UHGV virus genome: UHGV-1588268
Origin: a virus
DNA: 11,566 bases
Direction: 5' to 3' (one strand)
Shown: positions 1,462 through 11,566 of the stretch, piece by piece
Numbering within the stretch: the stretch's first letter is position 1
Layout of the letters: each line of letters opens with the position of its first letter
Position numbers and translations under genes: made by a program
The notes under the pieces: model-generated
Told to the model about the DNA's origin: nothing
The model's input: the letters and a program-made list of their open reading frames with translations, nothing else
Databases searched by the model: none

Positions 1462-1656
1462 TTAATAGTTCTGCTGATTTTCTTCCATCTCTGCTTCTGC
1501 TGCCAGTGATTCAATTTTGTTTTCGAATATTGCTGACAGTGTTGCAAATTCAGCATCAGTGACAGCGGGAATTGGAACAAACCTGATCCCGCTGTGTGCA
1601 AGCATGTTTGCAGTTTCAAGGCATTTTCTTAAATCTGCTGGTGATGCCCTGTTCAT
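1462..1656 (-). CDS. Hypothetical small acidic protein (64 aa)
   Basis: Start ATG overlaps the methyltransferase stop as ATGA (translational coupling); convergent with int. Sequence MNRASPADLRKCLETANMLAHSGIRFVPIPAVTDAEF...EAEMEENQQNY. No family recognised. Confidence 0.4.
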   Translation of the reverse strand: MNRASPADLRKCLETANMLAHSGIRFVPIPAVTDAEFATLSAIFENKIESLAAEAEMEENQQNY

Positions 1657-2303
1657 GCAGCACGCTCCCGCCCCTGGTTGTCTGTTGGTGACAGCGGAGC
1701 ATTGCTGAATGCATTTGTTAATCCGCCAATATCCAACGCGTATCCAGGGTGTAGTTGCACTGCCGGGTCTTCGCACTGATTACCCCAAACATCGAAGCCA
1801 TGAGACGTCTGGCGGGCGAACAGTTCAATGCGAGAAACATCGCCTAATAATTGCACAAGTTTTTCACGAACGATATCTGGCTTTCTTGAATGCTCAAGCC
1901 GCGGTGCGGTAAATGACTGAACGATCCCTGCATTAATGCGCGTAGGTAGTTTTCCCTTTACCGCAAACAGGCAATCTTCACTATTGGCGCGAGTCATGTG
2001 TCCCATACCCATAACCAGTTTATCTGGTTGTCGACTACCACATTTTATCCACGTGAAGCCCTTCATCGTCATCAGACGGAATCCCCAGGCTTCAACAACT
2101 TTTAGTGCTTCGAGTGGTTGTGTTGGCACCCACCACATGGCCAACAGACAGTTTTCATCGGCCAAATCCCACACAGGAAGGCGGCAGATATCCAGCACAC
2201 TCATAACCGGATATTTAAAACCGGCACCGCGATTACCATCTGCGGCTTTGTCCCGGTATACCCAGGGTGGATCTGCATAGATTAGTGTGTATTTCTTAGT
2301 CAT
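1653..2303 (-). CDS. MT-A70 family N6-adenine DNA methyltransferase (phage orphan methylase)
   Basis: 216-aa ORF. N-terminus MTKKYTLIYADPPWVY carries the DPPW catalytic motif of MT-A70-type adenine methyltransferases; WGF and FDVWGN motifs further downstream. Confidence 0.85.
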   Translation of the reverse strand: MTKKYTLIYADPPWVYRDKAADGNRGAGFKYPVMSVLDICRLPVWDLADENCLLAMWWVPTQPLEALKVVEAWGFRLMTMKGFTWIKCGSRQPDKLVMGMGHMTRANSEDCLFAVKGKLPTRINAGIVQSFTAPRLEHSRKPDIVREKLVQLLGDVSRIELFARQTSHGFDVWGNQCEDPAVQLHPGYALDIGGLTNAFSNAPLSPTDNQGRERAA

Positions 2304-9593: not shown

Positions 9594-10288
9594 GCGAGAT
9601 TAACTATCAGGCTCTGCGACTGGCGGCAGAAAATGCAACACTAGGCGAATGGTGTACTGATGACTACCATGGAGTAATTGCCGATGCCGGACTGAACGCC
9701 AATTACTACATAGCATCATGCTCAGGACCGGATAATCGCGCCAATAAACGATTCATAGCCGCAGCCAATCCGGCTACCGTGCTGGCACTGCTGGATGAGA
9801 ACGAAAGCATGTGCCGCGACCTCATTGCTCGCAATGGTGAGATTGAAGGGCTTCGAAAACTGGTTGCTGAACTTGAGGAGACAAAATCAAAACTCAACGA
9901 GCAGCGTGAATATTACGAAGGTGTTATCTCGGATGGAAGTAAGCGTATTGCTGAACTGGAGAAAAGCGAAGAGCAACTCATCAGCGAGCGTGATCATGCT
10001 GAGTCTGCTTTAGCTGATATGTATTTTGCAGCAACCGGGGATAGGCCGGAGTGGAGCAACTTGTTCGGCTTTTCAGATGCTGTAGATGCCGTGGTTGACA
10101 GAATTGCTGATTTAGAAGCTAAACAGCCATCGCCAGTAGTACCGGAAGGACTGATTAAAGCGGTGCGTTTTTATGAGCAGGTAAAACGTGAGAACCCGCC
10201 AGTCGAAACCGGAGCATGGAAAGACGCTGTTGACTGGGTGCTCAAAGAGGCTTGCCCGGCTGTAAACATTGGCATCAAAGGAGAGTGA
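9590..10288 (+). CDS. Ead/Ea22-like family protein
   Basis: GTG start with AAGGAGG ribosome-binding site (the track's ATG at 9557 has none). N-terminus SEINYQALRLAAENATLGEW...CSGPDNRANKRFIAAANPATVLALLDENE matches my memory of Ea22-like prophage proteins; coiled-coil middle section. Confidence 0.6.
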   Translation: MSEINYQALRLAAENATLGEWCTDDYHGVIADAGLNANYYIASCSGPDNRANKRFIAAANPATVLALLDENESMCRDLIARNGEIEGLRKLVAELEETKSKLNEQREYYEGVISDGSKRIAELEKSEEQLISERDHAESALADMYFAATGDRPEWSNLFGFSDAVDAVVDRIADLEAKQPSPVVPEGLIKAVRFYEQVKRENPPVETGAWKDAVDWVLKEACPAVNIGIKGE

Positions 10289-10290
10289 GA

Positions 10291-10809
10291 GTGCAGATTT
10301 CACCGGTTACTCTTCGTGTTGCGAAGGCGTTTATATCCAGACATCACCGACACAATAAACCCCCGGTGGGGCATAAATTCAGCATTGGTCTGAGAAATGA
10401 TGCCGGAGAATTGATAGGTGTGGCGACAGCCGGTAGACCTGTTGCACGACATTTGGACGATGGATTAACGCTTGAAGTAAATCGCACATGTACCACAGGA
10501 GAACGCAACGCTAACAGCGCGCTTTATGGTGCTGTCTGGCGGGCAGCAAAGGCTATGGGTTATCAACGTTGTATTACGTACACCCAGGCAGATGAATCAG
10601 GAGCATCTCTTCGCGCAGCTGGTTTTGTTCGTGTGAAAGAGCTTCCTCCAAGAAAAAGCTGGGCGGAATCAAGCGTCGCCCTGCGGAGTAAACGCGATCC
10701 GGTCGGAAACGGTGGTGTTCCTCGTGTGCTCTGGGAAATCAGGAGAATGAGTACCACTGGCATTCGCATCAAAGGAGACGCAGGAGAACAAAACGATGAA
10801 AAACCGTAA
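10291..10809 (+). CDS. Conserved phage protein, GNAT-like acyltransferase fold suspected
   Basis: GTG start with AAAGGAGAG ribosome-binding site. Motifs RHHRHNKPPVGHKF, LIGVATAGRPVAR and the C-terminal SGASLRAAGF resemble GNAT acetyl-CoA-binding and motif-B regions. Function is inferred. Confidence 0.55.
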   Translation: MQISPVTLRVAKAFISRHHRHNKPPVGHKFSIGLRNDAGELIGVATAGRPVARHLDDGLTLEVNRTCTTGERNANSALYGAVWRAAKAMGYQRCITYTQADESGASLRAAGFVRVKELPPRKSWAESSVALRSKRDPVGNGGVPRVLWEIRRMSTTGIRIKGDAGEQNDEKP

Positions 10810-10972
10810 AGCAAAATTACTTCTTTTATCGCGTTCGACGGGGTACGAGAAGCTACCAATCAGCAATCACAAACGGGCGGTGATCGGCATGTTTGGTAGG
10901 GTGGTATTCGCATTTAACTATAAACCCACCGCGTCGCGGAACAGACGAGAGAAGGGGTACGCAGTGCGATGA
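10796..10972 (+). CDS. Putative small basic ORF (58 aa) beginning MKNRKAK
   Basis: Own translation: MKNRKAKLLLLSRSTGYEKLPISNHKRAVIGMFGRVVFAFNYKPTASRNRREKGYAVR. Start lies inside the 3' end of the preceding gene; stop overlaps the next ATG as ATGA. Below the track cutoff. Confidence 0.25.
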   Translation: MKNRKAKLLLLSRSTGYEKLPISNHKRAVIGMFGRVVFAFNYKPTASRNRREKGYAVR

Positions 10973-11160
10973 AAAACCGTAAGGCAAAGATGCTGATAGC
11001 AAAGCCGGGGCAGCGTATCCGTATCTCAAATCGGCTTGTTATTTACTATAGATATCTGGGTTTTAGGGGGTGTTCCTCTATTCGTTTTTACGGTGTCTGG
11101 CGAAACAGAAGCGCAGCACAAAACCGCTGGAAAAACCACTTTCGCACTAAAGGAGAGTGA
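10969..11160 (+). CDS. Putative small basic ORF (63 aa) beginning MKNRKAK
   Basis: Shares a 21-nt start region with the preceding small ORF (20 of 21 identical). Arg-rich. Stop lies within the ribosome-binding site of the next gene. Confidence 0.3.
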   Translation: MKNRKAKMLIAKPGQRIRISNRLVIYYRYLGFRGCSSIRFYGVWRNRSAAQNRWKNHFRTKGE

Positions 11161-11161
11161 T

Positions 11162-11566
11162 ATGACCACTATAACCGATAAGAAACAGTATCCAGGCGAG
11201 CAATATCTTAATGAGCTGATCACCAACATAGAGTTTGCTGCAAGGGCACCAGTTGAAGTCGTGAGAGCAATGGCAGCAGAGCTACAGAAGCGGCGCGAAG
11301 CTGATAGTGCCGAACCTGCAAGTAATCATGAAGAGTTGCCGCTTGATTATCTCCAAGGTCAAAAAGATGGTCTTGAATGGGCTGCGCAGCTTGCAGAAGC
11401 AAATCACCCACAAACTGGCGACTGGCTTTACGATGACCAGCTGGAGCTGGCTAAAGCTATCAGAAAAGGTCCTGACATGCCCGAATTCGATGGACCAACT
11501 CCGGTAACTCTGGATGGTTGGATAAGCTGTAGTGAGCGAATGCCCGCTCAAGATGATTGGATTTTA
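11162..11566 (+). CDS. Hypothetical protein, 5' partial view (runs past the window end)
   Basis: Open frame from ATG 11162 with AAGGAGAG ribosome-binding site and no stop to the window edge (135 codons; MTTITDKKQYPGEQYLNELI...GWISCSERMPAQDDWIL). The C-terminal W...ERMP segment is faintly reminiscent of DUF551-type prophage proteins; weak. Confidence 0.5.
   Translation, partial: MTTITDKKQYPGEQYLNELITNIEFAARAPVEVVRAMAAELQKRREADSAEPASNHEELPLDYLQGQKDGLEWAAQLAEANHPQTGDWLYDDQLELAKAIRKGPDMPEFDGPTPVTLDGWISCSERMPAQDDWIL

Follow-up and report, generated by a model that had tools for sequence, protein, structure and literature searches.

The question raised by this locus is whether a near-perfect direct repeat at the starts of two small tandem reading frames is a duplicated start joined to unrelated sequence or part of two real genes. 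The window (the whole stretch of DNA that was analysed, 11,566 nucleotides) is an E. coli lambdoid prophage, in which genes for integrase, methyltransferase, RecT, a RecE-like exonuclease, a CI-like repressor and a Cro-like protein are followed by O-like and P-like replication genes, DUF1064, a hypothetical gene, an Ea22-like gene, an XF1762/Mom-like gene, ORF1, ORF2 and DUF551, the ORF1-ORF2 pair being among the accessory genes of the early-right operon. The gene upstream of the pair (10291..10809, + strand; 172 aa from the GTG start that PGAP annotates in relatives) matches NF045478 (E 6e-61) and phrog_1384 (E 5e-42), and the label 'GNAT-like' given to it in a preliminary description of this DNA is fair, because it is an XF1762-family/Mom-like gene. 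ORF1 (10796..10972, + strand; 58 aa) begins inside the 3' end of this gene, 14 nt ahead of the stop codon at 10807-10809, and ORF2 (10969..11160, + strand; 63 aa) begins at an ATGA overlap in which the TGA of ORF1 is shared with the ATG of ORF2, both as first described. The 5' part of a DUF551-domain gene (11162..11566, + strand; annotated by PGAP in relatives) follows and runs off the end of the window. The repeat consists of GATGAAAAACCGTAAAGCAAA at 10795-10815 and GATGAAAAACCGTAAGGCAAA at 10968-10988, with one mismatch; with the preceding C included it is 22 nt long and 21/22 identical, copy 1 lying at 10794-10815 (+ strand; CGATGAAAAACCGTAAAGCAAA; the ORF1 start codon and codons 2-7, MKNRKAK) and copy 2 at 10967-10988 (+ strand; CGATGAAAAACCGTAAGGCAAA; the ORF2 start, including the overlap with the ORF1 stop). 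The two copies had been placed at 10794-10814 and 10967-10987, one base too far to the left; the spacing of 173 nt and the recurrence itself stand. A second match with ≤3 mismatches was found in 0 of 200 dinucleotide-preserving shuffles, and the DNA flanking the near-perfect repeat has no detectable nucleotide similarity. Each copy does, as reported, open a small Arg/Lys-rich ORF with the N terminus MKNRKAK: ORF1 and ORF2 contain 15 and 17 K+R and 2 and 1 D+E, respectively, and have pI values of 11.6 and 11.8.

Pairwise BLASTP of ORF1 against ORF2 aligns the first 10 residues and nothing beyond, which suggested a mere common start; profile methods overturn that reading. ORF1 matches the phrog_1380 HMM at E 5.8e-23 (residues 1-58 on profile positions 1-60 of 62) and ORF2 matches it at E 5.5e-13 (residues 1-63 on positions 1-62 of 62), the E-value being better for ORF1 than for ORF2. 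In family alignments the two proteins are 35% identical in amino-acid sequence from end to end and have in common M1, N3, R4, K5, A6, L9, N21, N52 and R53, all of which are invariant or nearly so in the family (all of 29 sequences have N3, R4 and N21, and R53 is also invariant in the family alignments). The family signature derived from our alignments is M(K/N)NRKAK ... (R/K)(I/V)SN(R/H) ... SAAQNRWKNH(L/F)RTKGE, and the motifs common to both ORFs are MKNRKAK and (I/V)SN(R/H), with a QNR-containing tail that ORF1 has in degenerate form. ORF1 (MKNRKAKLLLL...), of sub-type B1, has a central ISNHK, in the context PISNHK, and the tail ...KGYAVR-stop; ORF2 (MKNRKAKMLIA...), of sub-type C, has PGQRIRISNR, with RISNRL as its central motif, and ends in SAAQNRWKNHFRTKGE followed by the stop. 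The C-terminal motif is SAAQNRWKNH in ORF2 and TASRNRREKG in ORF1, where the A..NR core alone is retained; this A..NR-core tail is common to all B-type (GYAVR-tail) members, and sub-type B, including ORF1, is shorter, with the tail TASRNRREKGYAVR. The earlier proposal of a partial gene duplication finds no support in the form given, since homology spans both ORFs fully, as seen in the end-to-end profile matches, the identity and the invariant residues. We conclude, as far as sequence comparison can tell, that ORF1 and ORF2 are complete, old, diverged paralogs of one small basic phage gene family, and that the repeat is their best-conserved part, not a start copied in front of unrelated sequence.

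Members of this family are encoded in 142 phage records (tblastn), including 933W, VT2-Sakai, many Stx phages and the P1-like RCS47, and also the Salmonella phages Sasha and Sergei. They include an unannotated ORF adjoining L0068 (933W), H0078 (VT2-Sakai) and gp78 (Salmonella phage Sasha), as well as the RefSeq entries WP_072103251.1 and WP_072048487.1 ('hypothetical protein'), and they are ~58-65 aa long with a pI of ~11.7. Homolog searches returned 8 close relatives for ORF1 and 44 for ORF2; the ORF1 protein is identical in 5 viral contigs, and ORF2 is 100% identical in phage HEMP4 and carries the annotation 'hypothetical protein' in strain 160-11H1. When 1.84 billion cluster representatives (50% identity) were searched exhaustively with the family profile, only 50 proteins were found, from enterobacterial phages, and the family is therefore narrow. 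The top match in that search (P0053; 1335 aa, 18 repeats) and a lower one (P0084) were discounted, as their scores add up weak matches along tandem-repeat ORFs, and longer relatives (P0090-P0098) have no Pfam domains and are fusions to other uncharacterised PHROGs or frameshift products.

Nei-Gojobori proportions calculated on the DNA of >150 family genes from viral contigs bear on whether both gene types are coding. As sums over pairs that are phylogenetically non-independent, pN/pS values are ~0.15-0.5 within and between sub-types and 0.15-0.4 within most sub-types, with 0.26-0.29 within B2 and 0.37-0.42 for B1 vs. B2. Within B1, the sub-type of ORF1, the 8 synonymous and 23 non-synonymous pairwise differences (ratio 0.91) represent too little variation to inform, and the evidence for constraint on ORF1 rests for that reason on B1 vs. 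B2 (pS 0.67, pN 0.25) and on the values within B2. Evaluated in different frames, pN/pS is 0.26-0.56 in frame +0 and mostly 0.6-2.2 in frames +1 and +2, with a weaker signal for the D type; for B1 vs. B2 it is 0.42 in the ORF frame vs. 0.95 and 1.14. Among the three sense frames, the ratio is lowest in the ORF frame; one antisense (−1) frame has an equally low value, probably because it mirrors the ORF frame, with third codon positions aligned. Dozens of contigs contain intact 58-aa ORF1-type genes, whose divergence is mostly synonymous. Taken together, the results indicate that both gene types are under coding (purifying) constraint in the ORF frame.

The family occurs singly and in arrays, among many different neighbours. 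The loci examined comprise 98 single genes, 41 pairs and 1 triple, set in 35 upstream contexts and 34 downstream contexts that form 61 distinct combinations. A scan of viral contigs found the 19-mer start at at least 120 loci, where it opens at least 6 different gene bodies; two copies lay 173-179 nt apart in about one-third of the matches listed. The pairs seen included B2+A1 (the commonest), B1+C (the pair in the window), B1+E, B1+D and B2+D, and the triple was B2+A1+D; the exact B1+C pair, at ≥80% query coverage, was present in 22 of 5,426 complete E. coli genomes, including ~90 kb phage-plasmids. The upstream neighbour in arrays is a B-type gene or a hybrid with a B-type tail, and the tail ...AAGGGTACGCAGT(A/G)(A/C)G, encoding KGYAVR-stop, stands ahead of every adjacent second copy with a −4 overlap (ATGA). 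The ORF1 type, with its GYAVR tail, is the upstream array member, with partners of the C, D, E and A types, and it also occurs without ORF2, beside a D-type or E-type partner. A degenerate C-terminal pattern that matched at least 120 viral contigs gave no match in genome contigs. The arrays would be translated by termination-reinitiation coupling at ATGA, because the Shine-Dalgarno sequence of ORF2 (AAGGGG) is weak and distant, whereas those of ORF1 and DUF551 are good. We found no description of the tandem arrangement or of the sub-type structure in the literature, and nothing for MKNRKAK or XF1762; a preprint on the Pas sRNA proved unrelated to the ORF1-ORF2 locus. We regard as modestly new the sub-type structure, the rule that the upstream member is GYAVR-tailed, and the coincidence of mosaic joints with conserved family ends.

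The family behaves as a cassette, with a conserved 5' end made up of the leader ACGCAGGAGAGCAAAACG and ATGAAAAACCGTAARGCAAA, a variable core, and a 3' end, ...CAGAACCGCTGGAAAAACCAC..ACTAAAGGAGAGTGA, the last codons of which serve the next gene as its Shine-Dalgarno sequence. In the window, the leader (ACGCAGGAGAACAAAACG; 10779..10795, + strand) places the Shine-Dalgarno sequence AGGAG 9 nt ahead of the ORF1 ATG, and the same leader, ACGCAGGAGAGCAAA(A/G)CG, is found ahead of most first-copy family genes in viral contigs, inside unrelated upstream genes. In a sample ascertained by the C-terminal motif alone, most members start with ATGAAAAACCGTAA(A/G)GCAAA, and distant members have the same peptide in other codons. 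For 14 representatives with <70% identity, the same-codon fraction at conserved residues is 0.46-1.0 in codons 2-7 and 0.18-0.47 in the body, and is also elevated in part of the C-terminal block. Values of pS in codons 2-9 are about half those of the middle in two of three length classes; a regional pN/pS of 0.98 for the middle of the 63-aa class is unreliable because C and D types are non-colinear there. BLAST endpoints between relatives fall at 10967/10968 and 10816-10827, corresponding to the edges of the conserved 5' block, and hybrid genes occur, among them one that joins an A-type body to a GYAVR tail and another (P0007) that has an RTKGD tail on a B1 body. We conclude that what recurs as the 22-nt repeat is the conserved 5' region of the family, not a scar of local duplication. 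The preliminary description had offered a recombination scar as one reading; this is borne out in so far as breakpoints cluster at the edges of the 5' block, but the block itself is the 5' end of the family and not a scar.

How near-identity of the 5' ends is kept at synonymous sites allows two accounts. We infer that homologous exchange at the conserved ends would maintain this near-identity and would shuffle cores and neighbours, in the manner of classical lambdoid mosaicism, with selection on the translation-initiation region probably also contributing. According to the other account, which we hold to be a serious though less probable alternative, the 5' identity is kept by selection on the mRNA and not by recombination, the candidates being an A-rich unstructured initiation region, an AAA second codon and the efficiency of reinitiation at ATGA, and breakpoints cluster where they do since the block is all that can be aligned. 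A-rich early codons favour initiation in E. coli, and codon 2 is AAA in every representative that has K there; moreover, distant members keep M(K/N)NRKAK with other codons (AAT, CGC, AGA, GCC/GCT/GCG), and the peptide is therefore the long-range constraint. Selection on the mRNA fits less well with the finding that nine sub-types, with synonymous divergence saturated elsewhere, share an exact 19-mer together with a ~18-nt leader inside unrelated genes, with the joining of near-identical gene bodies to unrelated partners exactly at the block edges, and with the existence of hybrid genes. With these data, recombination and selection are inseparable as the cause of the 5' nucleotide identity. For the locus as a whole, the reading as diverged tandem phrog_1380 paralogs in a mosaic lambdoid accessory region, that is, as ordinary phage mosaicism, is very probably correct.

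Comparison with relatives defines the joints at which the two genes entered this arrangement. The window contains three copies of a junction repeat, D1 (...TTCGCA(TC/CT)AAAGGAGA..). Copy 1 (10266..10288, + strand; ACATTGGCATCAAAGGAGAGTGA) forms the 3' end of the Ea22-like gene (...GIKGE-stop) and the Shine-Dalgarno sequence of the next gene; copy 2 (10760..10782, + strand; GCATTCGCATCAAAGGAGACGCA) forms the left boundary of a two-gene insertion; and copy 3 (11138..11160, + strand; ACTTTCGCACTAAAGGAGAGTGA) forms the 3' end of ORF2 (...RTKGE-stop) and the right boundary, and carries AAGGAG, the Shine-Dalgarno sequence of the DUF551 gene. The junction form, ...CAAAGGAGA(GTGA), is present at 10760-10782 and 11138-11160 and encodes ...(I/T)KGE-stop together with an AAGGAG ribosome-binding site for whichever gene comes next; the gene-end tail ...AAAGGAGAGTGA is common to Ea22-like, XF1762 and phrog_1380 genes. 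In MINF_2E, XF1762 directly abuts DUF551 and neither small gene is present, and relative to MINF_2E the window has an insertion of ~363 nt (roughly 10779-11141) with D1 copies at both boundaries. The earlier conjecture that a 173-bp segment is an insertion bounded by the repeat is thus replaced: 173 nt is the length of the first gene, and the real insertion is bounded by D1. In 160-11H1, XF1762 is followed by an apparently unrelated 57-aa ORF and an ORF2 homolog (92% nucleotide identity), without ORF1, both small genes being annotated; in VTB96815v, an Ea22-like pseudogene is followed by the same ORF1-ORF2-DUF551 block (99.6% nucleotide identity), with the pair unannotated; and in BA92, ORF1 is followed by a D-type family member, and the second gene alone is annotated. 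In several RefSeq genomes, too, ORF1 lacks a PGAP annotation, and often neither gene of the pair has one. XF1762 ends in IKGE-stop or IKGGE-stop in relatives and in IKGDAGEQNDEKP followed by the stop here, where its last 9 codons (DAGEQNDEKP-stop) traverse the ORF1 leader and first codons; the 3' extension of XF1762 and its overlap with ORF1 arise because the usual ...IKGE stop is replaced at the D1 joint.

On these results, it is very unlikely that a recent duplication of a 21-nt start, or a 173-bp insertion, produced a degenerate ORF1 that is not a real gene. Such an origin would accord with a near-perfect repeat between flanks that lack detectable nucleotide similarity, with the frequent absence of ORF1 from annotation and with the existence of relatives that have ORF2 only; but ORF1 scores above ORF2 against phrog_1380 (E 6e-23), ORF1-type genes of 58 aa are intact in dozens of contigs with predominantly synonymous B1 vs. 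B2 differences (pS 0.67, pN 0.25), ORF1 occurs without ORF2 in pairs with D-type or E-type genes, and the D1 junction, not the 21-mer, marks the ends of the insertion when the 'empty' arrangement is taken as reference. A single gene in relatives, with copy 1 as an unconstrained remnant, had been put forward as the alternative outcome; ORF1-type genes are instead intact in many loci. Still more improbable is the regulatory or leader-peptide arrangement suggested at the outset, taken here as a leader peptide or cis-regulatory RNA in which translation of the small ORFs would control DUF551 expression through RNA structure. The small size and overlap of the ORFs would fit, a terminator-like hairpin with a T-run lies within ORF2 at 11064-11080, and terminator-like sites in the region number 7 vs. 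1.5 in shuffles, but the fold of 10760-11170 has no added stability over shuffles (z = −0.70), the sole Rfam match (ylbH, 21.7 bits) falls below its gathering score of 50, and no sigma-70-like promoter was found. Coding constraint in the ORF frame argues in the same direction, and the amino-acid sequence is conserved across hosts and contexts, which, together with the 34 different downstream contexts, makes the family a poor fit to a dedicated leader. The explanation of the locus thus appears to be an ordinary one: a catalogued, uncharacterised small phage gene family, with diverged members in tandem in a translationally coupled accessory region.

What the proteins do can be approached through a predicted structure. 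Pfam and NCBIfam contain no family for ORF1 or ORF2, a PDB sequence search with the family profile found no relative, and PADLOC gave no match for ORF1, ORF2 or XF1762 at E ≤ 0.1. The best AF2 model, of moderate confidence (pLDDT 73, pTM 0.46), has two helices (residues 4-10 and 49-62) with three strands between them (16-20, 23-28 and 39-45), and the predicted fold is a small helix/three-stranded sheet/helix. In structural searches no fold match was significant; an AP2/integrase arm-type three-stranded-sheet-plus-helix DNA-binding fold, which would call for a significant structural match, was among the candidates considered. With a moderate model and no such match, any statement of function is a guess. 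Our low-confidence guess is that the proteins are expressed early, have a non-essential accessory role and use their high positive charge to bind nucleic acid or else an acidic partner from host or phage; they might possibly be dimeric, with the B type as the partner subunit in arrays. An unlikely but more specific idea is that the cassettes serve an arms race, in which specificity variants with recombinogenic ends and fast-evolving cores, stacked one to three per phage, would be swapped against a host or competitor target, with the GYAVR B-type as a dedicated first-position partner. If this were true, the GYAVR B-type would be, for example, one half of a heterodimer with an exchangeable second subunit.

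In practice the results matter chiefly for annotation: PGAP regularly overlooks two real small genes in E. coli prophages and phage-plasmids, and the XF1762/Mom-like gene owes its apparent 3' extension to the junction. The locus also illustrates, cleanly and on a small scale, how lambdoid module shuffling is accompanied by conserved gene ends that double as ribosome-binding sites and starts, and the spread of the family among Stx phages makes it a reasonable, non-urgent candidate for small-protein screens.

Comparison with known systems places the pair first of all with phrog_1380 itself. ORF1 and ORF2 resemble members of that family in full-length profile match, size, charge, motifs and an early accessory setting in temperate enterobacterial phages; ORF1 differs in having the degenerate form described above in place of the C terminus SAAQNRWKNH..RTKGE and in being of the type that is the upstream member of tandem arrays. 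CsrA/RsmA, which provided the top, non-significant Foldseek matches, is similar in length and has a beta-rich core followed by a C-terminal helix; it was rejected on a Foldseek E of 0.58 and TM of 0.37, an hhalign probability of 0.09 and the absence of PF02599 matches in 29 members. Phage Mu Com is a small, basic, ~60-aa translational activator with a Cys4 zinc finger, encoded upstream of mom and overlapping it. By analogy with Mu com-mom, the pair, whose products are likewise small, basic and ~60 aa long and which lies immediately downstream of, and overlaps, a Mom-type DNA-modification gene, could be a Com-like partner that assists the modification enzyme or controls its translation, but we give this scarcely any credence: no homology to Mu Com was detected, the zinc-finger cysteines are lacking (0 Cys in ORF1, 1 in ORF2), the gene order is opposite, and the linkage with XF1762 is unconserved, given 35 upstream contexts (including Ea22-like and ParB-like genes and the 57-aa ORF) and XF1762 genes that occur without the small genes. 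The arrangement also resembles the mosaic module junctions of lambdoid phages. Short conserved sequences at the gene boundaries of the nin and ea regions have reportedly been discussed for lambda, P22, HK97 and HK022, in connection with the modular theory of Susskind and Botstein and in later work by Juhala, Hendrix, Clark and colleagues. As at those junctions, breakpoints fall at gene boundaries, short conserved blocks flank interchangeable cores, and genes are tightly packed and translationally coupled. Unlike at those junctions, the blocks conserved here are parts of the coding sequence in a single gene family and are present in tandem in one genome, and a direct repeat is therefore visible.

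The junction repeat (...CAAAGGAGAGTGA) is present in three copies in the window, at 10266-10288, 10760-10782 and 11138-11160. Each copy coincides with, or lies close to, the 3′ end of a gene, and the three genes concerned (the Ea22-like gene, the XF1762/Mom-like gene and ORF2, respectively) are unrelated. The repeat encodes the peptide ...(I/T)KG(E/D), and the gene that follows takes its Shine-Dalgarno sequence from it; in other phages, most phrog_1380 genes likewise end with the junction-repeat tail.

The XF1762/Mom-like gene (10291-10809, plus strand, right operon) has nine extra codons, within 10779-10809, compared with its relatives: the relatives terminate in ...IKGE or ...IKGGE, whereas the gene in the window terminates in ...IKGDAGEQNDEKP. 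The usual stop is lost through the junction, and reading therefore continues into the leader and first codons of ORF1. An Ea22-like pseudogene in strain VTB96815v carries the same extension. The XF1762/Mom-like gene is one of two DNA-modification-type genes in the prophage, the other being a DNA methyltransferase gene (phrog_359; 1653-2303, minus strand, left arm). ORF2 contains a terminator-like hairpin (11064-11080, plus strand), in which TAGGGGGTGTTCCTCTA precedes TTCGTTTTTA; the interval 10000-11566 contains seven terminator-like sites, as compared to 1.5 expected from shuffles.

In strain 160-11H1, the slot of ORF1 is occupied by an apparently unrelated 57-aa ORF (MRVACIGLLPYPTRFWASALIAKPHVLMADNIIPAQKRRHTGIAAARREAKKRRRAK; L003 2019-2192), and the DNA encoding its basic tail is the conserved family leader for the ORF2 homolog next downstream. 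A longer protein, P0039, begins with residues similar to those of this 57-aa ORF. The proteins P0076 (222 aa), P0073, P0086 and P0088 include frameshifted or fused variants: one variant joins ORF2 residues 1-34 out of frame to a DUF551 protein, and others are A-type genes whose ends change over to ...LLQKAQRGAKPLEKPLAH, a tail produced by reading the conserved C-terminal block in an alternative frame. The top scorers in the profile search included two long tandem-repeat ORFs, P0053 (1335 aa) and P0084 (264 aa), whose scores were built up from multiple weak hits (18 in P0053 and 4 in P0084) in the middle of the profile. We judged both to be spurious; they are probably protein translations of satellite-like DNA.

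In RefSeq/PGAP, annotation is missing for ORF1, and in many cases for both members of the pair, or an over-extended "ead/Ea22-like" CDS covers them (VTB96815v, L001 1540-1905; strain BA92, L164 1218-1394; matches H102-H105). The homolog in phage 933W (L162 2501-2686) is likewise unannotated and overlaps the start of annotated L0068.

The pair also occurs, at 98-100% nucleotide identity, on ~90 kb E. coli plasmids (NZ_CP122828.1, 90,359 bp, H101; NZ_CP069647.1, 89,674 bp, H106) whose size makes them probable P1-like phage-plasmids. The P1-like phage RCS47 (H67) has a phrog_1380 family member. These occurrences suggest transfer of the cassette between lambdoid and P1-like elements.
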